DNA from: Candidatus Omnitrophota bacterium
Lineage (GTDB): Bacteria > Omnitrophota > Gorgyraeia > Zapsychrales > Fredricksoniimonadaceae
NCBI GenBank assembly: GCA_903944345.1
Contig: CAJARJ010000009.1
Span: forward strand, 1,875-65,874
Direction: 5' to 3'
Length of the DNA stretch: 64,000 bases
Under the pieces are notes generated by a model, which was not told the origin of the DNA, did not search any database, and saw only the letters and a list, made by a program, of their open reading frames with translations. A program made the position numbers and the translations under genes. Shown here in pieces: positions 4,728 through 56,020 of the stretch. Position 1 is the stretch's first letter. Each line of letters starts with the position of its first letter.

Positions 4728-4739
4728 AATCTCCCCCCC

Positions 4740-5462: not shown

Positions 5463-5481
5463 TTTACAGACCTTGTCTGGC

Positions 5482-6000: not shown

Positions 6001-6004
6001 CGTA

Positions 6005-7070: not shown

Positions 7071-7255
7071 ATTGTTGCCTAGTATAACCACATCTTTCAA
7101 AAAAAGCAATATTTTAATGTTTATTTGATTTAGATTACCTCGAACAGTTTTCGCCCGTTTCGTTAATCCCGGGAACCCACTTCGAGTTCTACCCACACGC
7201 TTCATGCAAGAACCATAAAATTATCAAAAATACTGCAAAACTTAATTCCATTCTT

Positions 7256-7284
7256 TTGACTTTAAGCAGCAGCTCTGATATTGT
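7256..7284 (+). promoter_or_regulatory. candidate sigma70-type promoter for lpxB
   Basis: TTGACT, then 17 nt, then TATTGT, about 55 nt upstream of the lpxB ATG. Confidence 0.4.
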
Positions 7285-7340
7285 ATCAATCAAATTTACC
7301 CGGACATATCGTTTCATACAGAACATCGCGGAAAGCTCCA

Positions 7341-42117: not shown

Positions 42118-43635
42118 CTATGCCGGCACAGAATGATCCTGCTCATAAAGACACTGTAGAAGTTCAAGCTCGTCCCGGTCAAACCATACCTGTCCACAGG
42201 TGCGACACCTGTCAATTTCGACAGTATACCTTGGATTAACAAAACGCCGCACCATCCTGGGGGCCGCATCTGCACAAGATGGACAAGGGATACTTTGCTC
42301 ATCAAACCCCGTATACCCGCCCCATGGCCGCGCCGGTAAAGGTTGATGCAGAATGGTTCTGGCCCGATCCTGAATGACTGAAGAAAATACCCGCTCACGT
42401 CTTTCCAGAATACGCAGGACATCCGGTTCTTTTATCAGAAACCCCTGACATTGAACACAAACAAGAACAGAAATGCCTTCGTAAGACGATTCTGTCAGTG
42501 TGGCGTGACAGCGGGGACAAGCATTCCGCAGGTTCCTCCCGGATGAAACTGCAAAAACGCCAGTATCCACGTTACCAGTTACTGAAAATGGCGGGGCTTC
42601 AGTCAAAGGCTGCTGCATACTCTGCTCCAACTCTTTCTCGGTCATATGCACCATATCCAGAAGTATAGCGATCCTTTTTCTGACCGGAGGATGAGTAGAA
42701 AAAAGTTCAGAGAAAAGGCTGTCCTGATCATCCATTGCCTGTCTGACAGGATTCTGGATGAAAATAGCCTCCATCCCCTGCCCGGGCAAACCAGCCCCTT
42801 TCCAGCGATGACTAATAATAAACAATGCCTCGGCCAATGCCAGAGGATTGCGCGTCAGGCGAACAGCCAGAGCATCAGCCCTGTACTCCCTTTCCCGGGA
42901 AATAAACAATGAGCCAAGAAAACCAAGAAATCGCAACACATTAACCAGCAAAAAAACAATAGCCAGCAGAAGAAAATACCCGTCGGCATCCCGCTTTCCC
43001 CTGCCCAGCCTGGTCCCACGCAGCATTAATCCGACAGCATCACAAATATTATCGAAAACCCTGAAAATGACCGAAGTGACAGTAGTCGAAAGGCAATCAC
43101 CGGAAGCGATATGCCCGGCTTCGTGCGCAACAACCGCCTCAATCTGCTCCCGTGAGAGCCGGCTGAGCAGTCCTCTGGTAATCCCGATCACACTGCGGCC
43201 TTCGAAGTCCTGCAAGGCGAAAGCATTAAGTGCCGCTGTCGGAATAATAAACGGTTCAATCCTGAATTTCCCGCCAGTCGCAACCTGAGCCTCCTCGACC
43301 ATATTACGAAGCATCTTTTCCTGAGCATCATCCGTCGAGGCTGGAGCGGCTTGCATCAACCCCAGAGCTTGATTAATCAAATTCCGGATTGACAGCTGCC
43401 AGTGAAACGTCCCCGCTAATCCGGCGCCGATAAAAGTCCACGCCACTAGCGGCCAATCAAATAGAGCTGCGGACGGCAAGGGATCCGTATAACTAATATA
43501 GGAACGAAACAGGAAATATTTACAGACAAGGACAATGATCAGCAGAGAAATAAAATAAAAAAAAACAAGACCCAGAAAGGAAAAAAAGATTGTCCTGGAT
43601 TTGTCTTTCTCGATCTGAACAAAAGAATACGCCAT
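42118..43635 (-). CDS. M48-family Zn metallopeptidase (HtpX-like) with two C-terminal zf-TFIIB-type zinc ribbons
   Basis: N-terminal TM pair, HEAGH Zn motif (VVAHEAGHIASGD), more TM helices, then CPRCH...CVQCQGFLIKEPDVLRIL and CPSC...CRTCGQVWFDRDELELL (CxxC...CxxCxGxWxDxxEL). Confidence 0.75.
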   Translation of the reverse strand: MAYSFVQIEKDKSRTIFFSFLGLVFFYFISLLIIVLVCKYFLFRSYISYTDPLPSAALFDWPLVAWTFIGAGLAGTFHWQLSIRNLINQALGLMQAAPASTDDAQEKMLRNMVEEAQVATGGKFRIEPFIIPTAALNAFALQDFEGRSVIGITRGLLSRLSREQIEAVVAHEAGHIASGDCLSTTVTSVIFRVFDNICDAVGLMLRGTRLGRGKRDADGYFLLLAIVFLLVNVLRFLGFLGSLFISREREYRADALAVRLTRNPLALAEALFIISHRWKGAGLPGQGMEAIFIQNPVRQAMDDQDSLFSELFSTHPPVRKRIAILLDMVHMTEKELEQSMQQPLTEAPPFSVTGNVDTGVFAVSSGRNLRNACPRCHATLTESSYEGISVLVCVQCQGFLIKEPDVLRILERRERVFSSVIQDRARTILHQPLPARPWGGYTGFDEQSIPCPSCADAAPRMVRRFVNPRYTVEIDRCRTCGQVWFDRDELELLQCLYEQDHSVPA

Positions 43636-43693
43636 TGAACCCCGGATTATTCTATAAATTCGAAACTATTACAGAACAATTGATCGAGAATCA

Positions 43694-44248
43694 TCAAAAC
43701 TTGACCTGAGGCACCACTCTTTCAGCAGGAGCATCCAGCTGAAAGAATTCTGCGGCTTTGAACGAAAACTGCCCCGCAATAATATTATTAGGAAAAATCT
43801 GAAGAGCGGCATTATAACGATTAACTTCATCATTATAAAACTGCCTGGCAAACCCGATCTTGTTCTCTGCGGTGGTCAGTTCCTCCATCACCCGGGACAT
43901 GGTCTGATCGGCTTTAAGCTGGGGATAATTTTCGGAAACAGCCAGCAGACTCCGCAAAGTCGAAGTAAGCATATTCTCCGCCGCGAGCTTGTCTTTTACT
44001 GTGCTGGCATCTACCGCCATCTGCCGTGCTTTAGTGACACTCTCCAGAGTCCCGCGCTCGTGAGCCATATAACCCTTGGCGGTTTCAACAAGATTGGGAA
44101 TCAAATCGTGCCTGCGCTTAAGCTGAACATCAATCTGCGCCCAGGCATTCTGCACCGACACTTTCATCTGCACGAGGGAGTTATAAATCCCGACAAAAGA
44201 CATGACAAGCAAAACAGCCAGACCAAGAAGAACCAAAATCGGCATCAT
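43694..44248 (-). CDS. lemA: LemA-family protein
   Basis: N-terminal TM then a LemA domain (NAWAQIDVQLKRRHDLIPNLVETAKGY). ATG at 44248/44245 with GGAGGAG upstream; the ORF-track extension to 44341 is unlikely. Confidence 0.8.
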   Translation of the reverse strand: MMPILVLLGLAVLLVMSFVGIYNSLVQMKVSVQNAWAQIDVQLKRRHDLIPNLVETAKGYMAHERGTLESVTKARQMAVDASTVKDKLAAENMLTSTLRSLLAVSENYPQLKADQTMSRVMEELTTAENKIGFARQFYNDEVNRYNAALQIFPNNIIAGQFSFKAAEFFQLDAPAERVVPQVKF

Positions 44249-44286
44249 AACTCCTCCATTCCATTGTCGACCTGTTTGATCCGGAC

Positions 44287-44679
44287 TCAGTGCAACCGCC
44301 GCACCACACGCTTGACCTGCAACTGATACGCACGCTGGCATTCTTTCTGTAAATCAAAATCCAGCATAAAATCCTGCAAAGTATCCTCATCCCTGCGGCT
44401 TAAAAGGCCATGCTCGATCATGATAAAAACAATCCTGCCAATATCCAGCGGAGTCTGGATCCCCCAGGTCTGCAGGACATAGAACGCCAGCGAACCAAAC
44501 TTTCTGACGGCCAGAGACTTGACCCCCTCAACCAGCTCCTGACCGGAAACATGCGAAGTCCGGCGGAAACACTTTTGAGTAAAGGACAACCCTTCCAGAA
44601 CAAACTCGTAAGCATCCAACGCGTAACGACTGTCGGCATGTACGATTTTGACGAAGTATTCATTTATGTCTGTACTCAT
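44287..44679 (-). CDS. hypothetical protein (130 aa, family not recognised)
   Basis: ORF MSTDINEYFVKIVHADSRYALDAYEFVLEGL...; the start is placed at the ATG (44679) 7 nt downstream of an extended -10. Confidence 0.5.
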   Translation of the reverse strand: MSTDINEYFVKIVHADSRYALDAYEFVLEGLSFTQKCFRRTSHVSGQELVEGVKSLAVRKFGSLAFYVLQTWGIQTPLDIGRIVFIMIEHGLLSRRDEDTLQDFMLDFDLQKECQRAYQLQVKRVVRRLH

Positions 44680-44686
44680 AAAGCGG

Positions 44687-44695
44687 ATTATAACA
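44687..44695 (-). promoter_or_regulatory. extended -10 element (TGTTATAAT) 7 nt upstream of the ATG, implying a leaderless or near-leaderless transcript
   Basis: Minus-strand reading ...CCCGTTATGTTATAATCCGCTTTATGAGTACAGAC, with no RBS between the -10 and the ATG. Confidence 0.4.
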
Positions 44696-44761
44696 TAACG
44701 GGAATCAAGAAAGAAAAATTTGCTGCTGAAAAGAAAATAATCCGTGAGATAATTCATTTCT

Positions 44762-45208
44762 ATGCCCTGGTTCCTGCGTCTGACATGGTTCGGATATTGC
44801 CTGCTTTTTGCCAGCTCCTCTTCAGGTACGCTGGCCTCTCTATTAAATGAGCAGGGTCAACTGTTCTGCTACTATCAAATGCTGCTGGCGCTCTCCCCCG
44901 GGGCAATCTTTGCCTACTGCTGTGCCATATGCGCCAGTATTATGAACATCATCAGTCTCTGGCCGCTCTTGTGCCATACTCTTGATATCCCCTCTTCTGG
45001 CAAGAACGCCCTGAAACTTCTGCTCTTGCTGAGAATCGTTCTGGAAATCCCGGCGCACAACTTTGAATGGCAGGAATTCAAAGCTCTCCAACACACAAAT
45101 CCGGGTGTTGCCACAGGCATTCTTTTCTTTAGTCTGCTCTTATTGTTGCCCTCTTACAGCGCCTTCCTGCAACAAGCCATGGGAAAACGCACAAGAAATG
45201 ACCAATGA
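44762..45208 (+). CDS. possible small hydrophobic membrane protein (148 aa), doubtful
   Basis: Uninterrupted plus-strand ORF rich in Leu/Cys/Trp in an otherwise gene-free stretch, upstream of the DUF3307 gene. No RBS or promoter identified. Confidence 0.3.
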   Translation: MPWFLRLTWFGYCLLFASSSSGTLASLLNEQGQLFCYYQMLLALSPGAIFAYCCAICASIMNIISLWPLLCHTLDIPSSGKNALKLLLLLRIVLEIPAHNFEWQEFKALQHTNPGVATGILFFSLLLLLPSYSAFLQQAMGKRTRNDQ

Positions 45209-45222
45209 ATGAGTAAAATTCC

Positions 45223-45250
45223 TTGCAGTCACAACGGATTAGGTTAGAAT
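45223..45250 (+). promoter_or_regulatory. candidate sigma70-type promoter for the DUF3307 gene
   Basis: TTGCAG, then 16 nt, then TAGAAT, about 33 nt upstream of AGGGGA-N7-ATG at 45284. Confidence 0.45.
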
Positions 45251-45283
45251 AATAACAAAATTCCGTCGAAAGGGGACGCCTGC

Positions 45284-46021
45284 ATGTTTATATATATCCG
45301 TTTGCTCCTGGCGCATCTTATAGGAGACTTCCCCCTGCAATTAAATCCTGTTTTCAATCTCAAACAAAAAAGCCTTCTGGGGGGCATCCCGCACGCTCTC
45401 ATTATTGTAATCTGCTCGCTGCTACTGATGTGGCCTTACCTCAATCATCCGGCAACCTGGCATTTTGCTTTCTTTATTGGTTCCGTTCACCTCTTGCAAG
45501 ATTGGATCAAACTGCGTTGTACCGTTCCCCGGCTCAGCTTCTGGACCTATATTGCTGACCAGCTTTCGCATGCCGGAGTGCTCGCATTAATCTTTTTTAC
45601 CGACCTGCCCGTGTTCGCTCTTCCGACAGACTCAGGGAACCCGCTTCTTCAACTTTACTGTAACGACCACGTTATTGTTTATTGTATTGCCCTTATCCTG
45701 GCAACTTATAACGGCTTTTACATGATCAGAAACTTCAAAGATTCATTCTTCCTTAAGCCGGAACAACACACAGCGTTTGAAAAATGGTATGGAATAGTGG
45801 AGCGGGCTCTGATTGTAACTTGCTTTTATCTGGCTGGATCAACACTCTACTTGCTTCCGGCCATGCTGCTGATCAGACCCCTGCTGATTCTATGGCCAAA
45901 GAATCCCTTAAAACTTGCAGCAACCTTTGCTTCTTTAACAGAAATTTCCCTGAGCTGGCTGATTGGATTGTTGTGCGGCTATATTCTATTCCTGTTTCAG
46001 GCCGGTTACCCGATAAATTGA
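45284..46021 (+). CDS. polytopic membrane protein, DUF3307-like
   Basis: 245 aa with 6-7 hydrophobic helices and an N-terminal LLLAHLIGDFPLQ motif that I recall as the DUF3307 signature (from memory, unverified). Its 3' end overlaps the convergent cyclase gene by 36 bp. Confidence 0.55.
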   Translation: MFIYIRLLLAHLIGDFPLQLNPVFNLKQKSLLGGIPHALIIVICSLLLMWPYLNHPATWHFAFFIGSVHLLQDWIKLRCTVPRLSFWTYIADQLSHAGVLALIFFTDLPVFALPTDSGNPLLQLYCNDHVIVYCIALILATYNGFYMIRNFKDSFFLKPEQHTAFEKWYGIVERALIVTCFYLAGSTLYLLPAMLLIRPLLILWPKNPLKLAATFASLTEISLSWLIGLLCGYILFLFQAGYPIN

Positions 46022-48247
46022 AATCGGCTTGACCTTGCCCTTGACGGCAATCGGCTCCAGTTTTTCCACCTGAATGTGGTCTGCCACCGAAAAATATGTG
46101 GTTTCACTGATAATAATCTCGTCTTTGCCCGCAGCAGAGCACAGCCGGGCTCCGAGATTCACATTATCACCAATAACTGTATAATCCATTCGCTCGACCG
46201 ACCCCATATTCCCAACAACCATATCACCCGTATTAATACCAATACCGATATGTAAAACCGGTTTGTTCTGCTGAATCCAGAGAGACTGCAGTTCCCGCAT
46301 CCGGGTCTGAATATCAATCGCCATCCTCACCGTCATCAGAGCATGATTACTCAAATGCCGATTCCCTGGCGCACCAAAGAAAGCCATAAGTTCATCACCC
46401 ACAAACTTGTCCAGTGTGCCGTTATATTTAAATACAATCTTGACCTGTTCCGAAAGAATTTCATTAAGCATGGCCACAACTTCTTCGGGCTGACGCGTTT
46501 CAGAAAAAGCTGTAAAACCACGGACATCCGAAAAGAAAACAGTTAACATCCGTCTTTCTCCCCCCAGCTTCAGGCGGGAAGGATCATTCATAAGTTCCGT
46601 AATAACATCGGAAGACAGATAGTGACTGAAAGCTTTCTTGATCCACAGCTTCTCTCTTTCTTCAGTCAGAAAACGAAAACAGGTAATAGCCGAGAACCCG
46701 AAAACAACAATCCCGAAAGGCCCTACCAGATCCACCCACCATCCGAAACGAACAAAAAGATACAAGGAAAGAAAGAAGTATAAAACAGCATACCCCATCG
46801 TCAGGACGAACCCAAGGGGAAGACTTAAAAGCGAGCTAAGGGCAACAACCAGGGCAGTAAGAATAAAAACAGCGAAAAGCAAAGGCCCGTCCACCCTGCG
46901 GATAAAGTCTTCGTTTAAAATAGTATTAATCAGGTTGGCATGCAGCCCCACCATCGGATACTTTTCCTGCAAAGGAATCGGACTCAGGTCATTTGTTCCG
47001 GTAGCGGTCAAGCCAATAACACAAATCTTGCCACTGACTACTGACCGGAGCTGCTGCAAAAGCTCTGCTTCCGTCTTGCGCAAATAGGCGATAGCCGAAG
47101 CGTCAGATAAAGAAGCCTCCAGTTCCCCGCGCAAATGCTCTCTAAGCTGTGCAAGACGAAGAATCGCATAGTAAGGAAGATGGGCAAACGACTCTCCCCA
47201 ACGGCCAGCCCAATTAATCAGCATCTTGCCCTGGGCATCGACCGGAATAACTATGTCCTTGTTCTTCCCTTGGATTGCGGCGTTCTTGAGCACAATAGCC
47301 CCACGCCTGGCCTCAACTTTCTCCACTGACAGATAATCCATAATAGCGGACACCGATAATTGCGCGTAAAGCCGGTCTTCGTGCTTTTGGAAAAGCGAAA
47401 CTCTGCGATTAACACCATCAATATCCGGTCCGGCATTTATGTACCCTCCGCCACGGATTGCGCGCACATATTCGAGAATAGGCACAGACTGATCCGCGGG
47501 CTCTTCAGCAAAAGGCCAGATGGCTTGGCCGGCATCCCTGGCAAACCTGGAGAAATAAAGACGTGCCGCTTTCTGCACCTTAAAATGATCCTGAATATAG
47601 AGCTCGTCTTCAGGAAATAAAAACCAACCGCGGGTTTCTTCAACTTTCTCGAACAAATGATCAATAGAAATCTCCGGTTCCAGACGTAGAACGTCATGCA
47701 CCGTCTCATCTAGCAGCATCTTTCTGCTTTGTGTCAACTTTTCCCTGGCGGAAACAATATCAATGCCCAGTTTTTCTGCGACCATCTCGGGAGTTGCGGA
47801 GATATCCTTGAGCAGAAGTTCTTTAAGCCCGGGAGGAGGTGGCAAAGAGGGCTCAACAAAATAGAATGGAAGATACGTTAACCCGCCTTTGGCCATAGCC
47901 TCGGCAAAGGCAATGTCCTGTTCGGGGAACTCCTTGTGCTCCTCGGAAAATATAATATCCATCAGGATCTGCCTTGCCTGGCATTCCTTGAGAATACTGG
48001 TCATCTGGGCATGATAGGTTCTTGGCCACGGCCAACGACCCAAGGCAGCCAGACTCTGGTCATCCATATCGATATGGACCACAGAACTGGTGCCGGCACG
48101 TGCTCCCTTGAAAACAAAACGAAGATCCAGTGCTTTAAGTTCGAGGATTTGATAGGGCTTGCTTTCTATGGAACAAAAAACAAGCAGAGCAAGAAAAAGC
48201 GTGACCCCGAAACAGACAAGAAACTTGAACAGGGTCTTATTATTCAC
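45986..48247 (-). CDS. CHASE2-sensor membrane adenylate/guanylate cyclase (class III)
   Basis: 753 aa: N-terminal TM, periplasmic CHASE2 region (WPWPRTYHAQM...), TM cluster, then the cyclase domain with metal-binding Asp in LTVFFSDVRGFT and KFVGDELMAFFGAP. Confidence 0.8.
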   Translation of the reverse strand: MNNKTLFKFLVCFGVTLFLALLVFCSIESKPYQILELKALDLRFVFKGARAGTSSVVHIDMDDQSLAALGRWPWPRTYHAQMTSILKECQARQILMDIIFSEEHKEFPEQDIAFAEAMAKGGLTYLPFYFVEPSLPPPPGLKELLLKDISATPEMVAEKLGIDIVSAREKLTQSRKMLLDETVHDVLRLEPEISIDHLFEKVEETRGWFLFPEDELYIQDHFKVQKAARLYFSRFARDAGQAIWPFAEEPADQSVPILEYVRAIRGGGYINAGPDIDGVNRRVSLFQKHEDRLYAQLSVSAIMDYLSVEKVEARRGAIVLKNAAIQGKNKDIVIPVDAQGKMLINWAGRWGESFAHLPYYAILRLAQLREHLRGELEASLSDASAIAYLRKTEAELLQQLRSVVSGKICVIGLTATGTNDLSPIPLQEKYPMVGLHANLINTILNEDFIRRVDGPLLFAVFILTALVVALSSLLSLPLGFVLTMGYAVLYFFLSLYLFVRFGWWVDLVGPFGIVVFGFSAITCFRFLTEEREKLWIKKAFSHYLSSDVITELMNDPSRLKLGGERRMLTVFFSDVRGFTAFSETRQPEEVVAMLNEILSEQVKIVFKYNGTLDKFVGDELMAFFGAPGNRHLSNHALMTVRMAIDIQTRMRELQSLWIQQNKPVLHIGIGINTGDMVVGNMGSVERMDYTVIGDNVNLGARLCSAAGKDEIIISETTYFSVADHIQVEKLEPIAVKGKVKPISIYRVTGLKQE

Positions 48248-48272
48248 GGCACAGCCATTTCAGAATTACAAA

Positions 48273-49292
48273 CTAGAATTTATAATACGTCGACAAAGAA
48301 ATCAGTGAACCTGAATAGCGGTCGACCGGTTCGTTGGATGAATTCTGTCGATAAGTATAATTCAATCCAAAAGACAAAGACTTGCTCATTGTATAAAACA
48401 ACGCAGCTGTAGCTAACGAGGCTTTGTCGGACTGAGTTCGGGTGTCGTCATCCAGCAGTGTGCGGCTTCTATAATCACGAAACTGCCAACTATAGGAAAG
48501 AAAACCCGACCAAGTCTTGTTAAAAAGATGGGTCAGTGAACCCCCCAGTTTATAAGCATCGTAATCATAATAATTAAGATAAGTATCATTCGCGTTATTA
48601 TTGGTGTACTGGGCATTCACTCTGAGCAAATCTTTCTGAAAGTACCTTCCAATCTCATAACCCAAAACATTGCGCCAATCCGCTCTTTCTTTGTCTGTGT
48701 TGGCAGCGAAATCTGTACGCGTGTAGCGATCCAGATAGTTGCGCAACATGATGTTGTAAGAAACCGCATGAAACAACTTGCTGGATAATTGCTGGCGCAA
48801 CTTGAAATCCAGAGCGTTTTCAAGATAGTCATCGTGTGGATCGGAGTTCTTGGCATGCCAATAAGCGACACTGTCCAGGCTGTATCCAGCAGAAAGTGTA
48901 AATTCCTTGGAAAGCTTATGTTCACCGCCAAGCCTGATGCCATTGCGAGTCAGGTCCAGATCTCTTTCCCCGGCATATGCCAGATTCATCATTTCATAAT
49001 CAACCAGCACATCAGTTTTGACTGACAAGGGAGAACGGAATGAAGCCTTCATAAATGTTTGGCCGAAACCGTCAGCATCTCTAGTACTGTTAAGATGCGT
49101 ATTGTTATCGTACCCGCCGGTCAATGCCGTAAGAAAACTGAATTTACCTTTGTCCAGAATTGTTTTCTGCGGTTCGAGATAAATCTTTTTTGTTTTCAAC
49201 TGAAACTTTTCGGCGGCATCTACCGAAGCCAGACCAGAACAACAAAAAACAGCCAGAATCCCAACGGCAAACAATATCTTATTTGTCTTCAT
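48273..49292 (-). CDS. outer-membrane beta-barrel protein, family not assigned
   Basis: Signal peptide MKTNKILFAVGILAVFCCSGLASVDAA (start at ATG about 49292; ORF track extends to 49370), alternating amphipathic beta-strand pattern, C-terminal STYYKF. Confidence 0.6.
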   Translation of the reverse strand: MKTNKILFAVGILAVFCCSGLASVDAAEKFQLKTKKIYLEPQKTILDKGKFSFLTALTGGYDNNTHLNSTRDADGFGQTFMKASFRSPLSVKTDVLVDYEMMNLAYAGERDLDLTRNGIRLGGEHKLSKEFTLSAGYSLDSVAYWHAKNSDPHDDYLENALDFKLRQQLSSKLFHAVSYNIMLRNYLDRYTRTDFAANTDKERADWRNVLGYEIGRYFQKDLLRVNAQYTNNNANDTYLNYYDYDAYKLGGSLTHLFNKTWSGFLSYSWQFRDYRSRTLLDDDTRTQSDKASLATAALFYTMSKSLSFGLNYTYRQNSSNEPVDRYSGSLISLSTYYKF

Positions 49293-49363
49293 CGCTTCTC
49301 CCTTATCGCATTCAGGATCATCCAGCATCCAGTTCAATCTTCTAAATGCAAAACTCATATCTG

Positions 49364-50296
49364 CTAACATTCTTCGCCTTCACATTCCCCCTGGTACTCG
49401 TTCTCCGGCTGATAGAAAGGCGGTTCATAATCCTCATATGAATTCTGAAAAGAATCGTCATAGGAGTCATGTGTATCTCTGATTTCATCCAGAGTTTCCA
49501 TCGCCTTGATCTCATCCACAAACTCCTTGGTCTCCGCAACAATTTCTGTTGTCTGTAACTCTTCGGAGATTTGTTCTATCTCTTCAACAATCTCCTGCTC
49601 ACCCGGGAGGTCGTCCTGCGGCTCCTGTTGATCAGGGAGTTCGCGGGTTTCTCTACCTTCACTATGCTCAAATACTCGCTCGAAAACCCTGTCCGAACGC
49701 CGGAAATCCCTGTCGGTAATCTGAGAGAACGACCCCGGCTCCGAAAAACGTTCAATCAGGGTCTTGAAACCTTCCGGCAACATCAGTTCCGCAAGCTGCT
49801 GGTTATCCTCATCAAATGTTTTAATAAATACCGTATCCTTAATAGCCATGACTTCATCGGTGTCTTTCTCAACATAAACAGACAAACTGCTGCCTCTTAC
49901 CCCGGCGATAGCCGAAGGAGTATTAATTTCAAAACTTAAACCAGACTTGATGTTTTCAAGATTCGCATAAACACGGCCTTTGGAAAGATCCAGCCGATCA
50001 ATGATTCCTGGAGCAGAAGAATTCAGCACAACCTGAGTCTTTTGCTCGATTCTGATCGTATTTTTCTTGTCAGTATCCAGGGCAATATCAACCAGAGAAT
50101 TCCTTGCGGTACGAACAACGTCGCCTATCCCCAGCTGCATGCCAGTTTCGACTTTCTTCCAATCGCTTGCCTGCGCAGACATGGTCTGGACACTCCCCTG
50201 CACAAAGACAACTTCTGCCGCGAAAGAAATCATCTGGAATATGGCAACAAGCACAAGCGCCAGAATTCCCGAAAGAAAAGTTTGCTGTTTTTTCAT
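49364..50296 (-). CDS. FecR-domain secreted protein with acidic C-terminal tail ending in CEGEEC
   Basis: Signal peptide, then FecR-like region (VQGSVQ...ETGMQLGIGDVVRTARNSLVDIAL...RVYANLE), then a D/E-rich tail. Confidence 0.65.
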   Translation of the reverse strand: MKKQQTFLSGILALVLVAIFQMISFAAEVVFVQGSVQTMSAQASDWKKVETGMQLGIGDVVRTARNSLVDIALDTDKKNTIRIEQKTQVVLNSSAPGIIDRLDLSKGRVYANLENIKSGLSFEINTPSAIAGVRGSSLSVYVEKDTDEVMAIKDTVFIKTFDEDNQQLAELMLPEGFKTLIERFSEPGSFSQITDRDFRRSDRVFERVFEHSEGRETRELPDQQEPQDDLPGEQEIVEEIEQISEELQTTEIVAETKEFVDEIKAMETLDEIRDTHDSYDDSFQNSYEDYEPPFYQPENEYQGECEGEEC

Positions 50297-50352
50297 ACCA
50301 GAGGCTCCCTTTTATTCAAGATATCAAATCCATTCTACCGCTCTTCGTATCG

Positions 50353-52155
50353 TTAGAAACCCTTTGTGACCGAGAACCAGGTATGGGTATGATCCCCATC
50401 AACCGACTGAATCTCCGGAACCAACGGGAACCCGCAATCCACACGAACAGAGACATTCTGTTCAGGTACGTTGTATTTAAACCCTACTCCAGCTGATGTC
50501 AGCGTATTAGCCTTATCATCACCCTCTTTAGGACTCTTCAATGCGCCATAACTCCAATCAACAAAAGTGAACAATCTTAAGGAATCATATATCTTGGTCT
50601 TTGTAGAAAACGGCACATACGCAGAACGGGAGAGAAAGTACGGAGGAAATTCCAGACCGACATTCATGGCATGACCGTTATCAGCCGGGAACTGGGTTCG
50701 CGGATAGCCGCGATTGTCGATAACTCCGTTAAATCCGCCCATACTGAATGAATTGACACCGGTAAGGGTCGCCGATGTTATCTGCCAACGGGCTTTAGCT
50801 GTAAGATCTACACCTGGTATCAATTTCTGTCGCCTGGCAACAGTTAAAAGATTCTTAACAAAATCTCCCTTGGCTCCCGCGACAGAAGCAGTATCTGATT
50901 TGCGCGGAGTTCCGGCCAGAAAATCCGGGATGCCTTGCTGAAGATCGTTTGTAATAACCCAACGTCCATACTTATCCGCACGATTCAAGGCCAGATCCCA
51001 CTTGGCAACACGATACTCATCCCTTTTAGCGGGACTATCGTAATCCTGATAAGGCTTATACCACCAGATATCAAAATATGTAAACCCATAGCTGGAAACC
51101 AGCTCAACATCAGGTTCATTAATCAACGATTGATAGAACCAGAAATAAAACTTTCTGGCACGTTTCTCAAAGTCAGTTTCCTGATTGTCCCTGGCGTAAT
51201 AATCTTCAGATTTATAAGGCAGCAGATAAAACTGAAAACGCCAGATATCGTTGAGCGGAATACTATAGTCAAAATCAACAATTTTATGCGCATCGGCTTC
51301 GGCCCACTCAACTTTGGCGGTTAACGTATCATCATGGCCGGAGATGTTATTATGCGATACAAAAGTTTTGTAACGATAATACAGGATAGTATCGGCACCG
51401 TAATTGTCTGCCTGGAGAGTAACATGCACCGGCGAACGCTCTTTGATGTTCAGGACAATATTAGTATCCCCGGTAGATGTATCTGGTTCCAGAGAGATGC
51501 TGGCTTTGCGGTCCTGCGCCTTGTTCATTCTAAAAACATCCAAATTCAAATGCTTGAAATTGAAAATTGCTCCTTCTTCCTGAGAAATTTTTTTTCTAAG
51601 AAGCTCGGTTGAAAAAACCTTGTTACCCCTGATTTCAATCTTTCCAACCCGCCCCTCAACAACCACAATCTCCAGAACGCCATCAGGAAGCCGGTCAGGT
51701 TTGATATAAGCATAAGAGGTAATATAACCTTCCCGACTATAAGCGCGGTTAACCAGATCGGCACAACGGCGCATGTCGCGGGCAGAAATTTCTTTTCCTT
51801 CGTAATCGGCTTTCAGGCTGGCCAAGGCTTCATCTGCCAGCAAAGTAGAACCGGTCACAACAACCTCGCGGATTTTCGTTTTTCCTTCAGGAAGCTCATA
51901 ACGGGGAATCATGGATTCCCTGGTCTTGAGAATGGTCACTGCAGGAGACTTGGCAGCCTTCTCGGAAAGCATGGTCGAAACCTGAAACGATTGAGGATCA
52001 TCCTCACCAGCACCCTCATCATACGCGCTAGCACAGGGAGCTAGCAATAAAATACAGGACAGAAAAACAACCGGAACAGCTAGAAATCGGCAAAGTTTGT
52101 TCCGCACGCACATATCTGTCATAAATACTTCCTCCTGGCGTTTCTTACCCAACAA
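50353..52155 (-). CDS. ShlB/FhaC/HecB-family two-partner-secretion outer-membrane transporter (TpsB; POTRA + 16-strand barrel)
   Basis: 600 aa: signal peptide, POTRA-like regions (EVVVTGSTLL..., VLEIVVVEGRVGKIEIRGNKVFSTELL), ShlB-type barrel, terminal Phe. No TpsA-like partner in the window. Confidence 0.75.
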   Translation of the reverse strand: MLGKKRQEEVFMTDMCVRNKLCRFLAVPVVFLSCILLLAPCASAYDEGAGEDDPQSFQVSTMLSEKAAKSPAVTILKTRESMIPRYELPEGKTKIREVVVTGSTLLADEALASLKADYEGKEISARDMRRCADLVNRAYSREGYITSYAYIKPDRLPDGVLEIVVVEGRVGKIEIRGNKVFSTELLRKKISQEEGAIFNFKHLNLDVFRMNKAQDRKASISLEPDTSTGDTNIVLNIKERSPVHVTLQADNYGADTILYYRYKTFVSHNNISGHDDTLTAKVEWAEADAHKIVDFDYSIPLNDIWRFQFYLLPYKSEDYYARDNQETDFEKRARKFYFWFYQSLINEPDVELVSSYGFTYFDIWWYKPYQDYDSPAKRDEYRVAKWDLALNRADKYGRWVITNDLQQGIPDFLAGTPRKSDTASVAGAKGDFVKNLLTVARRQKLIPGVDLTAKARWQITSATLTGVNSFSMGGFNGVIDNRGYPRTQFPADNGHAMNVGLEFPPYFLSRSAYVPFSTKTKIYDSLRLFTFVDWSYGALKSPKEGDDKANTLTSAGVGFKYNVPEQNVSVRVDCGFPLVPEIQSVDGDHTHTWFSVTKGF

Positions 52156-52365
52156 AAAAATTAGTAATGTGCACTAGATGCCTTATATCAATAAAACCGC
52201 ACACATAAAAACACGGCCTTAAGTCAAGACAACCTTTTTAAAGAAGAAATCAAACTGCTATGTGGAGTTGCTATATAATACCTGATATGTTACAGGTGTT
52301 ATCCTAAATTTTCTTTTCATTTATGTCCAGAAATATTATTAAATTCCTGTTTTCCTGAAACCGAT

Positions 52366-53226
52366 CTATGATTCACTGCCCACTCCGAACTCGAAAATAA
52401 CATAATACTGCATCTGGTCATCATCGGTAAACCACTCCCCGTCCGGGCCAACAGATATATATTTATGATCTTCAGCCTTGTTCGCGTCAGCGCCATAAAG
52501 AGTTTCTTTCGCCGAAGAAGCAACGTCGTCGGCTGTAAACCATTCCCCGTCCGTACCCTTACCATCATGATCAACATGATACTCAAGCATTTTAGTCATT
52601 TGCCCCGAAGCAGAATATTCGAACCGATGGTACTTTTCCAGCTCATCCCCCGTGTAATCCTCGGCCCGAACCTGCTGTCCATACTCATCATAGGAGTACA
52701 AAATCTTGCAGGTTTTCCTTTTATCAGAATAGATTGTTGTCTTGCTGGACTTGCGTCCTTGCTGATCGTATTCGTAAGTAGTTGTTGAAAGAAGCTCATA
52801 TTTCTTTCTTCTGGATTGTCCATCAAAAGACTTTTCTTTTATCAACTGGCCATCAAAACCGTATTCCATAACCTGAAACTCTTTTAACTTGTCATCATAA
52901 GTAAACGGAATACGATCCTCACCTGGTAAATAACGAAAACTGCGCAGAAGTCTTCCGGTTTTGGCATCACGTTCAATCTGGTAATGCTCGTAAACCATGT
53001 CGTCGTCGGAAAACCACACCTTGTCCGGACCAGCCACATATTTGATCTCTTTGTCCACAACAATATCTACGGTCTTCTCGGCGGGAATTTCCAGTTTCTC
53101 CTCCATGCCGATTTTTCCCACTTCCACCAAAAGATCGTCTATCCCGCGTTCCTGTGAGAACGCCGCCCCAGTAGATAACATAACTGCAAAAACAAGTGCT
53201 GAAATAGAAAAAGCAGTCCGCCTCAT
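52366..53226 (-). CDS. small secreted YD/RHS-repeat-like protein
   Basis: Signal peptide. YD-type repeats FTYDDKLKEF, YEYDQQGRKSS, YSYDEYGQQVR, FEYSASGQMTK. Three copies of a G-x-D-x-(E/V)-W-F-(T/S)-DDD motif. Confidence 0.55.
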   Translation of the reverse strand: MRRTAFSISALVFAVMLSTGAAFSQERGIDDLLVEVGKIGMEEKLEIPAEKTVDIVVDKEIKYVAGPDKVWFSDDDMVYEHYQIERDAKTGRLLRSFRYLPGEDRIPFTYDDKLKEFQVMEYGFDGQLIKEKSFDGQSRRKKYELLSTTTYEYDQQGRKSSKTTIYSDKRKTCKILYSYDEYGQQVRAEDYTGDELEKYHRFEYSASGQMTKMLEYHVDHDGKGTDGEWFTADDVASSAKETLYGADANKAEDHKYISVGPDGEWFTDDDQMQYYVIFEFGVGSES

Positions 53227-54314
53227 TTGCCGCTCCCCTCCGGTTCTGTAATACGGCTCAAGGTTGAGGCATCCGCGGTGACTTTAACCACACGAAAACC
53301 AATAACCTGCCGACTTAAGAAATCGTAACTGCGAAAACTGTTGTCATAGATTTCCGGATGCATAACCGTATCCATAATGAACGGGCGACCCATTTCCTTG
53401 CGATATTCGGTATCCAGAAGAAAACTTCCCCCGCGCAAAACCCTTGCAGCCTGAAACTTCTTGAAAACAGGCAGGTTAAAATAAAGTTTCTGACCAGGCC
53501 CAATCGGGTCTGTCTCATTCTCGGAACCAGTATAGGAATCCAGATACCAGTCATTGCACCATTCGGCTACATTCCCAACAAGATCCGTGATCCCAAGAGT
53601 ATTATCCCCCTCAGGCGAGAAAGCCCCAACCGGAAGAGTATCAACATCCACCGGATTCTTGACCTTGTGTCCGGCATTGGCCTTCTTTTCAAAACCTTTG
53701 CCTTCCCCCCAGGGAAACGGACGACGATCAGAGAAACTGGCGGCGTACTCCCACTCGGCCTCAGTAGGAAGACGATAACCTGTCGCACCATAAACCTGAG
53801 CGGACCAGTCATCCAGATTATAAAGAGGGGTTAAACCTTCACTCTCACTTAACATATTACAATAGAAGGCTGCGCCATACCAGCTGACCTCGACCACGGG
53901 ATAATCTTCTTTCCCGGAATGCGCCCGAAAACGGCCATTTTCATATGTGATCTGGGAATGTTCGTCAAAAATATCCTGATATTTCTGTGGCGACCGGGAA
54001 ACCCCTTTTGCCTCTCTTTTCTTTGAACTTTCGGACAAAACTGTTTTGTCCAGATAACCTTTCGACAAGGCATAGTTAAGTGCATCCGCATACTGCTGGT
54101 TGGTTATCTCGTATTTTCCCATATGGAAATCCTTGCTGATATGGACAGTATGCACGGGACGAGCATTTGAGAAACGCGCATTGCCCATCTGAAATGAACC
54201 GGCAGGCACCCGGACAAGTTCCGGAGCCTGCAGCTGAGCTTGTGAAATTCTGCTATAAAACAAGAGGCCGAAAAATAGCATGAGAACGGCAAAAGCAAAA
54301 GACATCTTTTTCAT
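53223..54314 (-). CDS. secreted FGE-sulfatase (SUMF1/formylglycine-generating enzyme) domain protein
   Basis: Signal peptide plus family blocks RVPAGSFQMG, YRLPTEAEWEYAA, GNVAEWCNDWY, RVLRGGSF. Confidence 0.8.
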   Translation of the reverse strand: MKKMSFAFAVLMLFFGLLFYSRISQAQLQAPELVRVPAGSFQMGNARFSNARPVHTVHISKDFHMGKYEITNQQYADALNYALSKGYLDKTVLSESSKKREAKGVSRSPQKYQDIFDEHSQITYENGRFRAHSGKEDYPVVEVSWYGAAFYCNMLSESEGLTPLYNLDDWSAQVYGATGYRLPTEAEWEYAASFSDRRPFPWGEGKGFEKKANAGHKVKNPVDVDTLPVGAFSPEGDNTLGITDLVGNVAEWCNDWYLDSYTGSENETDPIGPGQKLYFNLPVFKKFQAARVLRGGSFLLDTEYRKEMGRPFIMDTVMHPEIYDNSFRSYDFLSRQVIGFRVVKVTADASTLSRITEPEGSGK

Positions 54315-54375
54315 ATAACTCCTCTTGATTGAAAGGTCATGCCTCGATCACAACAAATCTACCCTGCCCAAGAAA

Positions 54376-55995
54376 CTAGAATCCCAGACGGCAACCACTA
54401 TTCTTGCCATCCTCGCTCTTGGGAAAGTTCGCGGCAAAACGCAGCGACACCCTTAAATATTTAGGTTCCGGACTGGACCAGACTCCTCCGCGATTACCTG
54501 CACCTGCCCCGTCTTTTCCGGGCCAGTTGGATACATTCGCAAAACCGTCCTGAGTCAAGGCACCATCTCCTCTTTGAGCAACAAAGCTCCGGCCCAAAGT
54601 ATGTCCAATGGTCACGCAACGCTCCCAAAGGTTTCCGCTCAAATTCCGAACTCCATAATAAGACGCCCCGGTGTTGATCCTCTCGCTCACATCCCCCTGA
54701 AGCGTATTCTCAAAAATCTCTCCGCTCACCGGCCCCTCGAAACCCGGATTATCAGGAGCAGTTTTCTTGCCGACATCAAAAGGAGCAATCCCGCCACCAA
54801 AACAGGCATTAACCACCCCTTTCTGGGGCACCTTCTTTTCATATCCGCTGCCATCCGCCCCGTCAAACGTATCGACACGACCAATCTTTTCGATATCTTC
54901 CATCGCAACCCCCCAGGACAATTCGTTAACCAGAGGCTTGCCGGGACCGCGTGCGGCCTTTTCGTATTCCAATTCGGTAATCGGACGAAGACCGGCCCAG
55001 TCGGCTATAGCCGCAATATTCGACCAGGACATAAAATTGACCGCACGTGCCGGCGCATACGTATAAAATTTGACCGGATCAATTGTGCCATTCCCTTTTT
55101 TGGCAGTCACAATGGCATTACGCAGATGCTCTTCTGCGCTGTTGGTTTTGACATAATAGTTCTTGATCTCGTCCTGGCTGATGTCAGCCTCGACCATGCT
55201 TTGCTGCTGCTTGCGATCCAAAGTATTGAGGAAGTCCACAAATTGCTGGGAGCTCAGCTCATACTTCATAATCCAGAAAGGATCAAAACCCTTGGGGAAA
55301 GCTGCCGGAATTGTGAACGGAACATCTTCCCGGCTGCGCGGATTATCCTGGTCGCAGTAAAGGGCCCCGTCAACCTTATCGACAAGAATAGAATCTTCGG
55401 ATTTAATCTGATAAGAGCCTTTATCAGGATATGAATAGAAACTGTTATCGGGGCCATTGGGGCCTTTGGGATCTCCTACATAGAATTCCCCGCGCGGCAC
55501 ATGGACCATTTCCAGTCCCATCACCTGAACCGGGGACTGCATTAACTGGGCATCAGAGATGCCTTCTTTAGAATAGTCCCACAATATCCGAACATTTTTT
55601 GAAAGGGAGTTTCCATTACCTTTGGTTCTAAAAAGAAACCCTCCGGTTTTCTCCTCAGGAATCCACATCCCCATATCTGCACCATCCCCCCTGGAAAACA
55701 TGTCCGGCGTATGATCAAGATAATCAAAAGAACCCGCGCTGGCTGTCTTGAGACTCACATGCTTCCAAAGCCCCTCCGGGGTCTTATACTTGGCGAAAAA
55801 CCAGACCCCGTCAGAATTGGTCTCGTTCTTCCAGGAATTCTCCCAGACGATATTAAATTGCAGCGTGGCAATCTTGTCCTGGGTATTGACCTCACTGATC
55901 ATCACCTTGTCAATCTTCAGATGACTGGCAAATGCCTGCCCCGAAAGAGCTAAAAAAACCGCCGAAACAATCAGGAACAAAAACAATTTCTTCAT
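54376..55995 (-). CDS. secreted FGE-sulfatase-domain protein with a ~200-aa N-terminal extra domain
   Basis: Signal peptide MKKLFLFLIVSAVFLALSGQAFA (ATG about 55995; ORF track extends to 56127). C-terminal FGE blocks RPITELEYEKAARG, GNLWERC, NRGGVWSS. Confidence 0.75.
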   Translation of the reverse strand: MKKLFLFLIVSAVFLALSGQAFASHLKIDKVMISEVNTQDKIATLQFNIVWENSWKNETNSDGVWFFAKYKTPEGLWKHVSLKTASAGSFDYLDHTPDMFSRGDGADMGMWIPEEKTGGFLFRTKGNGNSLSKNVRILWDYSKEGISDAQLMQSPVQVMGLEMVHVPRGEFYVGDPKGPNGPDNSFYSYPDKGSYQIKSEDSILVDKVDGALYCDQDNPRSREDVPFTIPAAFPKGFDPFWIMKYELSSQQFVDFLNTLDRKQQQSMVEADISQDEIKNYYVKTNSAEEHLRNAIVTAKKGNGTIDPVKFYTYAPARAVNFMSWSNIAAIADWAGLRPITELEYEKAARGPGKPLVNELSWGVAMEDIEKIGRVDTFDGADGSGYEKKVPQKGVVNACFGGGIAPFDVGKKTAPDNPGFEGPVSGEIFENTLQGDVSERINTGASYYGVRNLSGNLWERCVTIGHTLGRSFVAQRGDGALTQDGFANVSNWPGKDGAGAGNRGGVWSSPEPKYLRVSLRFAANFPKSEDGKNSGCRLGF

Positions 55996-56020
55996 AACGT
56001 CTCCTTCTAAAGAACAAATT

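Follow-up and report, generated by a model that had tools for sequence, protein, structure and literature searches.

A candidate TpsB-FecR-CHASE2 cyclase operon in an Omnitrophota bacterium: a proposed split variant of the NsrA-CyaK type of trans-envelope relay

A relay from the outer membrane to a CHASE2 sensor, which controls secondary infection, has been established genetically for NsrA and CyaK in Sinorhizobium meliloti, the one species with such evidence, where signal perception through CyaK, CyaD1 and CyaD2 depends on NsrA (PMC7529298, PMC13001267), and a CyaD1 construct without its CHASE2 domain makes cAMP constitutively (PMC5498481). NsrA (positions 4217-7876 of locus L011) is a polypeptide of 1219 aa, with an N-terminal FecR domain, TPR and a large C-terminal outer-membrane barrel, and the stop codon of its gene overlaps the start of cyaK, which encodes CHASE2 and a cyclase. 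A look-alike of NsrA (L041) matches the TonB-dependent receptor barrel family. In addition, FecR and CHASE2 are found together in the LysM/FecR and CHASE2 histidine-kinase 'BiofilmReg' operon of Burkholderia (PMC5192318), and in clusters of Campylobacterota that encode a CHASE2-cyclase, a FecR outer-membrane protein, a TPR protein and a phosphodiesterase (PMC9239204).

The locus described here lies in a stretch of 64,000 nucleotides from an Omnitrophota bacterium (hereafter the window), and consists of four minus-strand genes between positions 45986 and 52122, all of whose ORFs were present at the coordinates noted earlier. In the direction of transcription, they encode a TpsB-like Omp85 outer-membrane protein of 589 aa (50353..52122), an exported FecR-domain protein of 310 aa (49364..50296), a 14-stranded outer-membrane beta-barrel of 339 aa (48273..49292) and an inner-membrane CHASE2 sensor with a class III (IIIb-like) adenylate cyclase, 753 aa in length (45986..48247). 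The gaps between them are 56, 71 and 25 nt, and the ORFs, Pfam domains and gap lengths thus bear out an earlier description, made from the letters of this DNA (the sequence-only reading), of four co-directional, closely spaced genes. As in NsrA-CyaK, the gene for a FecR-domain protein stands directly ahead of one for a CHASE2 class III cyclase; both systems have an outer-membrane beta-barrel component and, as predicted for the window, a cAMP output, and their FecR domains can be aligned (25% identity, E 2e-7). However, NsrA is a single polypeptide, whereas the FecR protein of the window is separate and lacks TPR, and the window barrels are a TpsB-type Omp85 and a 14-stranded channel, the latter without sequence similarity to the NsrA barrel. 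The earlier statement that such an arrangement has no characterised function was therefore too strong, as NsrA, which carries a FecR domain, has been characterised genetically together with CyaK (PMC7529298, PMC13001267). Taken together, we regard a split, TpsB-based variant of the NsrA-CyaK type of relay, running from the outer membrane through FecR to CHASE2 with cAMP as output, as a moderately probable reading of this locus.

The spacing of the four genes suggests that they form one operon with a single transcript. Its start probably lies in the 243-nt intergenic region upstream of the TpsB gene (52123..52365), the largest gap in the cluster and the probable start of the transcription unit. 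Promoter-like hexamers occur there on the minus strand (52329-52301 and 52302-52275), but such hexamers were not enriched over shuffled sequence (20 found versus 18 expected), and promoter and terminator scans of the cluster gave results at background level. At the other end, a DUF3307 membrane-protein gene (45284..46021, plus strand; Pfam DUF3307) is convergent with the cyclase gene, whose 3' end it overlaps by 36 nt; this neighbour is conserved, lying in the same convergent position in L004, L005, L007 and L018-L019. The 286-aa protein encoded upstream had been called a YD-repeat protein, and this label is marginal: TIGR01643 scores above its cutoff (21.4 against 15.8), while Pfam RHS_repeat falls below (18.4 against 22).

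The product of the first gene of the cluster combines two POTRA domains with a ShlB-type barrel and carries a signal peptide. In Pfam searches, the ORF (50353-52155) matched POTRA_2, POTRA and ShlB with 62.3, 50.6 and 43.1 bits, respectively, each above its cutoff, and its nearest PDB sequences are CdiB and FhaC. The Omp85 motifs 'GVIDxRG(Y/F)PR' of loop L6 and 'FxFxD' are conserved in 50 members of this TpsB family and read 'GVIDNRGYPR' and 'FTFVDWSYG' in the window protein, whose C-terminal residue is Phe. The assignment to the ShlB/FhaC type thus stood, and the protein belongs to ShlB/POTRA_2 rather than to the Pfam classes Omp85 or Bac_surface_Ag; the start of the gene, which had been placed at 52155 (a TTG), probably lies elsewhere. 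The most likely start is the ATG at 52122, judging from the AGGAGG that precedes it and from the 589-aa product on record in public assemblies (12 contigs); an exact look-up of the 600-aa product of the TTG start gave no match. Among more distant relatives, P0056 and P0061 are orphans that lack FecR and CHASE2 in their vicinity, and P0058 is a canonical TpsB with a TpsA. Of two plasmid-borne relatives, the TpsB of Mesorhizobium adjoins a serine hydrolase and that of Thalassospira a TpsA, and a CHASE2 neighbour is absent at both loci.

The window TpsB shares POTRA_2, POTRA, the ShlB barrel and the L6 RG(Y/F) with the type Vb systems FhaC/FhaB, ShlB/ShlA and CdiB/CdiA. These systems differ in that they include a TpsA with a TPS domain; none was found among the window ORFs tested, the partner protein has a FecR fold instead of a beta-helix, and the operon ends in a signalling enzyme. 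Specifically, 20 ORFs (the module, its neighbours and ORFs of at least 500 aa) gave no match to the TPS domain (PF05860), and a custom TPS HMM gave no match either. It might be argued that the window TpsB is of the ordinary kind and works with a TpsA from another part of the genome, with the FecR/CHASE2 neighbourhood reflecting co-regulation or lineage synteny, since the window represents 64 kb of a metagenome-assembled genome and close relatives do have a TpsA within 3 kb of the module. However, the TpsA of these relatives has its own adjacent second TpsB, only 29% identical to the module TpsB, in agreement with the earlier claim that the module has no TpsA cargo. In L035, an upstream repeat ORF of 556 aa, a possible cargo, belongs to no Pfam family and does not resemble the Omnitrophota TpsA.

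The order TpsB-FecR-barrel-CHASE2 cyclase is kept in Omnitrophota relatives down to 45% TpsB identity, and analogous triads occur in unrelated lineages; on this comparative evidence the arrangement is more than a chance one, and the gene cluster can be considered a conserved unit, as had been proposed. In the Omnitrophota relatives the flanking genes are syntenic as well, so that conservation within this phylum alone could reflect inheritance, which would also suit an ordinary TpsB with a distant TpsA. Outside Omnitrophota, a divergent ShlB-type TpsB was found at 26 of the 38 metagenome CHASE2 loci whose contigs reach far enough upstream, and its distance from FecR is typically about 130 bp; these 26 loci fall into 13 clusters at 70% identity, and their flanks vary. 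The outputs of these triads are GGDEF-EAL, a histidine kinase or PP2C, and no large TpsA-like ORF lay beyond the TpsB in the seven metagenome loci inspected. Among cultured bacteria, Bosea sp. Tri-49 has the order TpsB, FecR and CHASE2-PAS-GGDEF-EAL; in Azospirillum lipoferum 4B a CHASE2 cyclase is followed by TpsB, and a neighbouring 235-aa protein is not FecR by Pfam or profile comparison. As the triads of Proteobacteria differ in gene order, outputs and flanks, and no TpsA-like ORF was seen where checked, we consider it very unlikely that the window TpsB simply serves a TpsA located elsewhere.

In a rough NJ tree, the TpsBs of the modules join the canonical TpsBs from the same phylum, both groups having 100% bootstrap. 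This grouping suggests that TpsB was recruited independently into the modules of different phyla, which would argue for a functional reason behind the pairing of TpsB, FecR and CHASE2. The module TpsB of the window is sister to the canonical, TpsA-linked TpsB of the same phylum, a position that an ordinary TpsB might equally be expected to take.

The association of FecR with CHASE2 extends well beyond the loci with TpsB. In a genome survey, a FecR ORF was located within 1.5 kb of CHASE2 at 44 of 79 loci, including those of Bacillota, Nitrospirota and Proteobacteria, with just one FecR match farther away in 1.24 Mb, and Pfam confirmed 14 of these FecR assignments; in a metagenome survey, FecR adjoined CHASE2 at 60 of 80 loci. 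These counts come from samples biased towards the query and from custom HMMs, and the metagenome contigs are short. The metagenome scan was conducted with a CHASE2 alignment led by L087, a mixed TpsB alignment being too divergent for pattern search; the L087 TpsB by itself had retrieved no relatives. A LysM-FecR type beside CHASE2 was confirmed in L059, L067, L079 and L083, and short FecR proteins stand beside CHASE2 without TpsB in L022, L026 and L027. The neighbourhood survey of CHASE2, FecR and ShlB that had been suggested beforehand thus revealed triads that recur across phyla. The Burkholderia and Campylobacterota clusters share with the window a FecR-domain protein encoded beside a CHASE2 sensor, and have a histidine kinase or a cyclase as output; they are without TpsB, and their FecR is tethered by LysM or lies inside an outer-membrane protein.

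The FecR protein of the window (Pfam FecR, PF04773, 35.5 bits, cutoff 24) comprises a Sec signal peptide without a lipobox, an all-beta FecR fold (about aa 27-192), a helix (195-212) and an acidic tail. Its model has a fold like the periplasmic domain of the anti-sigma factor PupR, with no helix-containing STN-like subdomain and no likeness to the TPS beta-helix. The tail is 95 aa long and disordered, with 34 D/E versus 4 K/R. While the acidic tail reported earlier is a conserved feature of the family, its CEGEEC ending is not: at least two tail Cys occur in only 8 of 72 members, and the Cys pair was rejected as a functional motif. Most TpsB-linked FecR proteins have long low-complexity tails; these are acidic in the window, and in the metagenome and Bosea loci they are rich in Gly and Asn. 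Several FecR proteins without TpsB end in a TM helix instead; from these endings, the C-terminus appears to be the anchoring end. Tail threading cannot be universal, however, because in L035 the TpsB adjoins a tail-less FecR protein of 154 aa. Best NCBIfam matches of the window FecR protein were to the FecR-domain proteins Lsa33, LipL45 and Lsa19 of Leptospira, at the domain level and far below the family cutoffs; these proteins are named as surface adhesin or lipoprotein. There was also a sub-threshold match to retention_LapA. In giant adhesins of the LapA/MpIBP type, a folded retention module in the TolC-like pore LapE anchors the polypeptide (bioRxiv 10.1101/198937). The likeness to this retention is structural only and below the family threshold; unlike LapA, the window FecR protein lacks RTX repeats and is no substrate of type 1 secretion, and the pore type is different.

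One alternative is that the FecR protein is a non-canonical cargo of the TpsA type, exported whole by the TpsB to the surface or medium as a receptor or adhesin, the cyclase sensing its state. TpsB proteins are dedicated exporters, the window TpsB keeps its L6 and barrel motifs, no other cargo is encoded nearby among the ORFs tested, low-complexity tails are typical of exported passengers, and the sub-cutoff Leptospira matches point the same way. We nevertheless find export of this kind unlikely, as the FecR protein has the PupR periplasmic fold in place of a TPS domain or beta-helix, and full export would part FecR from CHASE2. Moreover, the FecR domain of NsrA is N-terminal to the barrel and hence, by the usual topology, presumably periplasmic, and in Bacillota FecR accompanies CHASE2 where no outer membrane is expected. 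From the latter two observations, the conserved job of FecR is probably performed next to CHASE2 at the cytoplasmic membrane.

A related logic is found in FecA-FecR-FecI and PupB-PupR-PupI, in which an outer-membrane barrel acts through a periplasmic FecR domain on an inner-membrane transducer. Unlike FecR and PupR, the window FecR protein lacks both a cytoplasmic anti-sigma domain and a TM helix, there being no hydrophobic segment beyond the cleavable-type signal peptide. No sigma-factor or TonB-dependent receptor domain was detected among the ten proteins scanned from 42118 to 56127, and the output is a CHASE2 enzyme, where that of FecA-FecR-FecI is a sigma factor.

The third gene had been described as encoding a second outer-membrane barrel at 48273-49292. 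Although Pfam gave only sub-threshold barrel matches for the ORF (48273-49370), the AlphaFold2 model has 14 strands (pLDDT 89.4), and the protein has a signal peptide and a C-terminal motif, ...YYKF, ending in an aromatic residue, all of which agrees with that description. Two observations support the start at 49292: a AAGGGAGAA Shine-Dalgarno sequence, and homologues that measure 336-340 aa. The barrel resembles the substrate channels CymA and OmpG, and its homologues match Pfam BBP2_2; the idea that it is a cut-off NsrA barrel was rejected for want of BLASTP similarity. Barrel insertion is a function of Omp85 relatives such as BamA and TamA, and the best NCBIfam match of the TpsB is BamA, across the POTRA region. 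As the TpsB and the second barrel are encoded in one putative operon, the TpsB might not be the partner of FecR at all, acting instead as an Omp85-type insertase or chaperone for this barrel, or the two barrels, one of them CymA/OmpG-like, might form a solute route to CHASE2/FecR. Both versions are improbable in our view, because the second barrel is missing from L019, L035, L087, Bosea and all metagenome triads but one, while TpsB and FecR persist, and because the Pfam class of the TpsB is ShlB/POTRA_2.

The last gene agrees with its earlier description as a CHASE2-sensor class III cyclase (Pfam CHASE2 158 bits, Guanylate_cyc 88.5 bits). Hydropathy places TM1 at about aa 4-30 and a hydrophobic block, likely three TM helices, at about aa 449-527, leaving a periplasmic CHASE2 domain of about 420 aa, which carries a WPWPR motif, and a cytoplasmic cyclase domain at aa 568-745. 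The latter matches the P. aeruginosa adenylate cyclase CyaB (PDB 3r5g; E 3e-45), with FFSDVRGFT, DKFVGD, MDYTVIG and GDNVNLGARL conserved in the alignment. The catalytic residues are intact, including the metal-binding Asp, the Lys of DKFVGD, the Thr of MDYTVIG and the Asn/Arg of 'GDNVNLGARL'. A guanylate-cyclase-type Glu in place of the substrate Lys, a feature of Cya2, is absent from the window cyclase in the CyaB alignment; the aligned 2w01 chain reads DEFMGD at the DKFVGD position. As the substrate-specifying Lys and Thr match those of CyaB, the predicted output, given previously as cAMP/cGMP, remains a cyclic nucleotide as the best reading and can be narrowed to cAMP.

The view of the module as envelope-spanning and signalling is the best reading of the repeated co-occurrence of FecR, TpsB and a CHASE2 sensor across phyla; within it, the handling of the FecR protein by the TpsB, as suggested earlier, is conjectural, and the TpsB may export, thread or simply dock this protein. 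In the preferred relay, the large periplasmic CHASE2 domain would hold the inner-membrane cyclase in check. The FecR protein would be exported by Sec, its folded N-terminal domain serving as the periplasmic partner of CHASE2, and the TpsB-like Omp85 would tie its disordered acidic tail to the outer membrane: the POTRA domains would hold the tail, which would probably enter or pass through the TpsB pore. Either this tail or loops of the TpsB would then face the outside, where an event would alter the FecR-CHASE2 contact and turn on cAMP production, and the CymA/OmpG-like barrel may be a lineage-specific accessory channel. The physical FecR-CHASE2 contact, the threading of the tail, the direction of regulation and the nature of the signal are all inferred here. 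FecR-CHASE2 clusters were already known; a literature search found no earlier description of the TpsB variant, and among the papers searched none treated FecR domains or CHASE2 together with TpsB, POTRA or ShlB.

What CHASE2 senses is still listed as unknown (PMC5192318), and the position of FecR beside CHASE2 in over half of the loci sampled across phyla points to a protein partner. We therefore propose, tentatively and as a possibility somewhat short of even, that CHASE2 generally reads a FecR partner protein instead of a small molecule, and that TpsB was taken up as the outer-membrane end of this relay on two or more occasions (in Omnitrophota and in Proteobacteria), to hold or thread the FecR tail rather than to secrete a TpsA. 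The module is known in the culturable Bosea sp. Tri-49 and Azospirillum lipoferum 4B, and S. meliloti has its NsrA form, so that genetic and biochemical work is possible although the organism of the window is uncultured. A TpsB conserved without a TpsA, and paired here with a small FecR protein with a disordered tail and a signalling enzyme, would break the rule of one transporter and one large exoprotein. If the proposal is true, TpsB proteins would gain a role in signalling, and there would be a widespread trans-envelope pathway, parallel to FecA-FecR-FecI, that feeds cAMP, c-di-GMP, histidine-kinase and PP2C outputs.

The four minus-strand genes of the module were recovered as same-strand ORFs with the expected Pfam domains, and their intergenic gaps of 56, 71 and 25 nt agree with the spacing given in the sequence-only reading. 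The TpsB ORF (50353-52155) matched POTRA_2, POTRA and ShlB, each above the curated cutoff, which upholds its ShlB class; the start at 52155 did not hold equally well, as the most likely start is the ATG at 52122, which lies downstream of AGGAGG and gives a 589-aa product. This form, and not the TTG-start form, is recorded in public assemblies. The other genes encode a 310-aa FecR protein (49364-50296; Pfam FecR), a second barrel termed barrel 2 (ORF 48273-49370; DUF2490 and Omp85 in Pfam below threshold only) and a 753-aa protein with CHASE2 and Guanylate_cyc domains in Pfam (45986-48247). The barrel 2 start was placed at the ATG at 49292, preceded by AAGGGAGAA, and the resulting length agrees with that of its homologues (336-340 aa).

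The TpsB keeps both Omp85 signature motifs, each conserved over 50 relatives, and has CdiB and FhaC as its closest solved structures by sequence. The FecR protein carries a predicted Sec-type signal peptide, and its model comprises an all-beta domain (aa 27-192, mostly pLDDT >90) with the fold of the PupR periplasmic domain, followed by one helix and a 95-aa disordered C-terminal tail, in which 34 residues are acidic and 4 basic. Part of the model resembles the LapA retention module, and no TPS-domain beta-helix was found among the best 60 matches listed. The tail is acidic in all 72 of the FecR homologues compared and variable in sequence, and the ending CEGEEC is limited to close relatives. 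Barrel 2 was modeled with 14 strands (pLDDT 89.4); most versions of the module can dispense with it, and we regard it as an accessory specific to the lineage. In L113, a metagenome contig outside the window family, an ORF of 395 aa (307-1494, plus strand) weakly matches the barrel 2 HMM (E 1e-6) and is located just upstream of FecR and CHASE2.

The predicted topology of the cyclase begins with a single TM helix at the N-terminus; the CHASE2 region follows in the periplasm, and a hydrophobic stretch occupies approximately aa 449-527. Its catalytic domain can be aligned to the Pseudomonas aeruginosa adenylate cyclase CyaB (3r5g; E 3e-45), and retains the metal-binding Asp residues, Lys (in DKFVGD) for the substrate, Thr (in MDYTVIG) and Asn/Arg, and from the presence of these catalytic and substrate residues we infer that its output is cAMP. 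The periplasmic CHASE2 region (46838-48247, minus strand) spans approximately 420 aa in the window family, compared with approximately 280 aa in CyaK, the CHASE2 cyclase of Sinorhizobium meliloti, and contains two large insertions relative to both CyaK and the Pfam model. At its 3' end, the cyclase gene overlaps by 36 nt with a convergent gene for a DUF3307 membrane protein (45284-46021, plus strand). The same arrangement was observed in five other loci (L004, L005, L007, L018 and L019); the DUF3307 gene could be an extra member of the module or mere synteny.

That no TpsA, the exoprotein with an N-terminal TPS domain (PF05860), stands beside this TpsB was confirmed among the window ORFs scanned: Pfam found no TPS domain in the module ORFs, their neighbors or the other scanned window ORFs of at least 500 aa, a custom TPS HMM gave no match either, and the longest ORF of the window does not exceed 804 aa. 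An ORF of 799 aa (16786-19185, minus strand) had no Pfam family at E <= 0.001. In the relatives L005, L006, L014 and L021, a TPS-domain TpsA is located approximately 3 kb downstream of the module, and the TpsA/TpsB region lies just past the DUF3307 gene (14874-17740 in L005, 13153-21404 in L021 and 13663-15761 in L014); the TpsA of L005 has 2596 aa with TPS and Laminin_G_3 domains. As this TpsA has its own neighboring canonical TpsB (567 aa), only 29% identical to that of the module, sequence comparison indicates that the module TpsB is a paralogue of the TpsA-linked TpsB and not the transporter of that TpsA. The equivalent site in the window holds small ORFs and a LemA/M48 pair (42118-44341, minus strand), in which the LemA gene precedes that of an M48 peptidase carrying zinc-ribbon domains at its C-terminus. 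This pair is also found downstream of the module in public contigs with the same TpsB.

Two surveys were performed with CHASE2 alignments, each limited to the 80 candidates closest to its query among the pattern matches listed; ORFs were called mechanically and assigned to families with custom HMMs and Pfam spot-checks. In species-representative genomes (pattern WPWPRx[YL]HA), a FecR-domain ORF was found within 1.5 kb of the CHASE2 ORF in 44 of 79 loci (best 80 among the matches listed), almost always in the same orientation and in many cases only tens of bases away, and in 33 of 51 loci when at least 2.5 kb was present on each side of CHASE2. Elsewhere in the 1.24 Mb there was only one more FecR match, parted from CHASE2 by just a TpsB gene. 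Pfam confirmed 14 of these FecR calls and revealed that the domain is fused to LysM in beta- and gammaproteobacteria, to TPR with or without a TonB-receptor-like barrel in the NsrA-like proteins of L041 and L045, and to LPP20 in L036, that it stands alone in two Bacillota loci (L037 and L072), and that in a Clostridia MAG (L052) it belongs to a Big_2/fn3/RCC1 surface protein of 2700 aa. The outputs linked to CHASE2 were cyclase, GGDEF-EAL and SpoIIE/PP2C. In this survey, a TpsB beside FecR and CHASE2 was confined to the window family, the Omnitrophota locus L035 with a PP2C output and the Porticoccaceae locus L087 with a GGDEF-EAL output. In L035, a partial ORF of at least 556 aa (3-1673, plus strand) with many repeats of the NxTxxG type stops 27 nt short of the FecR gene in the FecR-TpsB-CHASE2-PP2C module; Pfam assigned it to no family, it did not resemble the Omnitrophota TpsA, and it may be a cargo.

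In the second survey, of short metagenome contigs with an alignment led by the L087 sensor, the FecR gene adjoins CHASE2 in 60 of 80 loci (best 80 among the matches listed), and a ShlB-type TpsB, divergent from FecR and typically approximately 130 bp away, was present in 26 of the 38 loci whose upstream sequence was long enough to judge. These TpsBs formed 13 clusters at 70% identity. Pfam identified POTRA_2 and ShlB in the TpsB, FecR in the middle gene of the triads, and CHASE2-PAS-GGDEF-EAL or CHASE2-PAS-histidine kinase in the sensors. Past the TpsB, seven inspected loci contained varied ORFs, none large or TpsA-like. Among annotated replicons of cultured bacteria, the plasmid NZ_CP017947 of Bosea sp. 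Tri-49 encodes a TpsB, a FecR family protein and a CHASE2-PAS-GGDEF-EAL protein, and AZO_p3 of Azospirillum lipoferum 4B encodes a 235-aa hypothetical protein without detectable FecR, then a CHASE2 cyclase and then a TpsB.

In a neighbor-joining tree of 24 TpsBs (553 columns, 60 bootstraps), the TpsBs of the Omnitrophota modules fell into a single clade, whose sister was the canonical, TpsA-linked TpsB of that phylum (100% at both nodes). A second group (100%) united those of the metagenome, Bosea and Azospirillum modules with two further TpsBs, a canonical one from Thalassospira and one from Mesorhizobium. As the TpsBs group by lineage and not by partner, this simple tree of a small sample provisionally suggests more than one recruitment of TpsBs to FecR/CHASE2. 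The Mesorhizobium TpsB (L176, 2480-6467 of Mesorhizobium ciceri pMESCI01) is of the ShlB type, directly follows a 720-aa serine hydrolase and has no annotated TpsA; this may be another non-canonical TpsB partnership.

Three related cases have been described. In Burkholderia, a LysM/FecR protein gene adjoins a CHASE2 histidine kinase gene in a biofilm-regulating operon (PMC5192318). In Campylobacterota, every adenylate cyclase found has a CHASE2 domain, and most are clustered with a FecR-domain outer-membrane protein, a TPR protein and a phosphodiesterase (PMC9239204). In S. meliloti, CyaD1 without CHASE2 gives constitutive cAMP (PMC5498481). On S. meliloti pSymB, a 1219-aa ORF that ends at the cyaK start was identified as NsrA from its length and its position beside the cyclase; it has an N-terminal FecR domain (25% identity to the window FecR protein, E 2e-7) followed by TPR repeats, and the NsrA barrel occupies residues 600-1200 (PMC7529298). 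A relay built from FecR, an outer-membrane barrel and a CHASE2 cyclase has thus been characterized genetically before. The window has the same parts, although as separate proteins and with other barrels. The first interpretation is partly upheld: the module and its signaling nature have good comparative support, handling of the FecR protein by the TpsB is a hypothesis, and the view that there is no characterized function overlooked NsrA-CyaK. In the literature searched, we found no description of the version containing a TpsB, which is common in the loci sampled here.

The upstream run at 52366-60050 has the direction of the module and the same gene order in relatives; it encodes a 286-aa YD-like protein, two FGE-sulfatase-domain proteins (one with a GldK/PorK match below threshold), an MFS transporter, a DJ-1/PfpI protein and an Lcl_C-repeat protein, and might form a larger functional island. 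A small Ion_trans_2 (K+-channel-like) gene, absent from the window, lies directly upstream of TpsB in L004 (7175-7843), L005 (7221-7898) and L007 (7246-7911), two genes upstream in L009 (6007-6678) and between TpsB and FecR in L018 (7138-7812), and a similar ORF, a putative counterpart, occupies the latter position in L019 (3373-3897).

The N-terminal domain of outer-membrane proteins is normally periplasmic, and no outer membrane is expected in Bacillota. Because CHASE2 has a FecR partner even in Bacillota, because NsrA begins with a FecR domain and because the window FecR protein has the PupR fold, this domain probably works beside CHASE2 on the outer side of the cytoplasmic membrane. The C-terminus looks like the anchoring end: it is the barrel in NsrA, a TM helix followed by basic residues in several FecR proteins without TpsB (L125, L140, L163 and L168), and a long low-complexity tail in most TpsB-linked ones, acidic in the window and, in the Bosea and metagenome loci, built from Gly/Asn repeats that can reach several hundred residues. 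The median G/N/S/A/T/P fraction of the tail was 0.67 with TpsB and 0.48 without, a difference that is only suggestive because the groups are small, related and overlapping. Many FecR proteins of L094-L173, with or without a TpsB neighbor, end in hydrophobic and then basic residues (e.g., LLGGLLGRKRN, LLDGLVRRRGKK and LITKLLDYLRR), and others in a TM helix; such endings may act as signals for sorting or anchoring.

Unfolded tails are among the substrates that a TpsB pore can accept. In the reading we favor, the TpsB would bind the FecR tail and probably thread it, the FecR domain would contact CHASE2, and an event at the surface would alter this contact and release cyclase activity. A folded domain anchors a polypeptide in an outer-membrane pore in the case of the LapA retention module (bioRxiv 10.1101/198937). 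However, threading cannot be the full explanation, as L035 pairs its TpsB with a tail-less 154-aa FecR protein and as short FecR proteins stand beside CHASE2 without any TpsB in L022, L026 and L027; an arrangement in which the POTRA domains only dock the FecR protein, with no threading, would fit the data equally well. A basic ribosomal protein was proposed as the ligand of the acidic loops of NsrA (PMC7529298); by analogy, one may speculate that the acidic tail could bind cationic ligands. In the genome survey, FecR thus appears to be the shared partner of CHASE2, and a second part varies.
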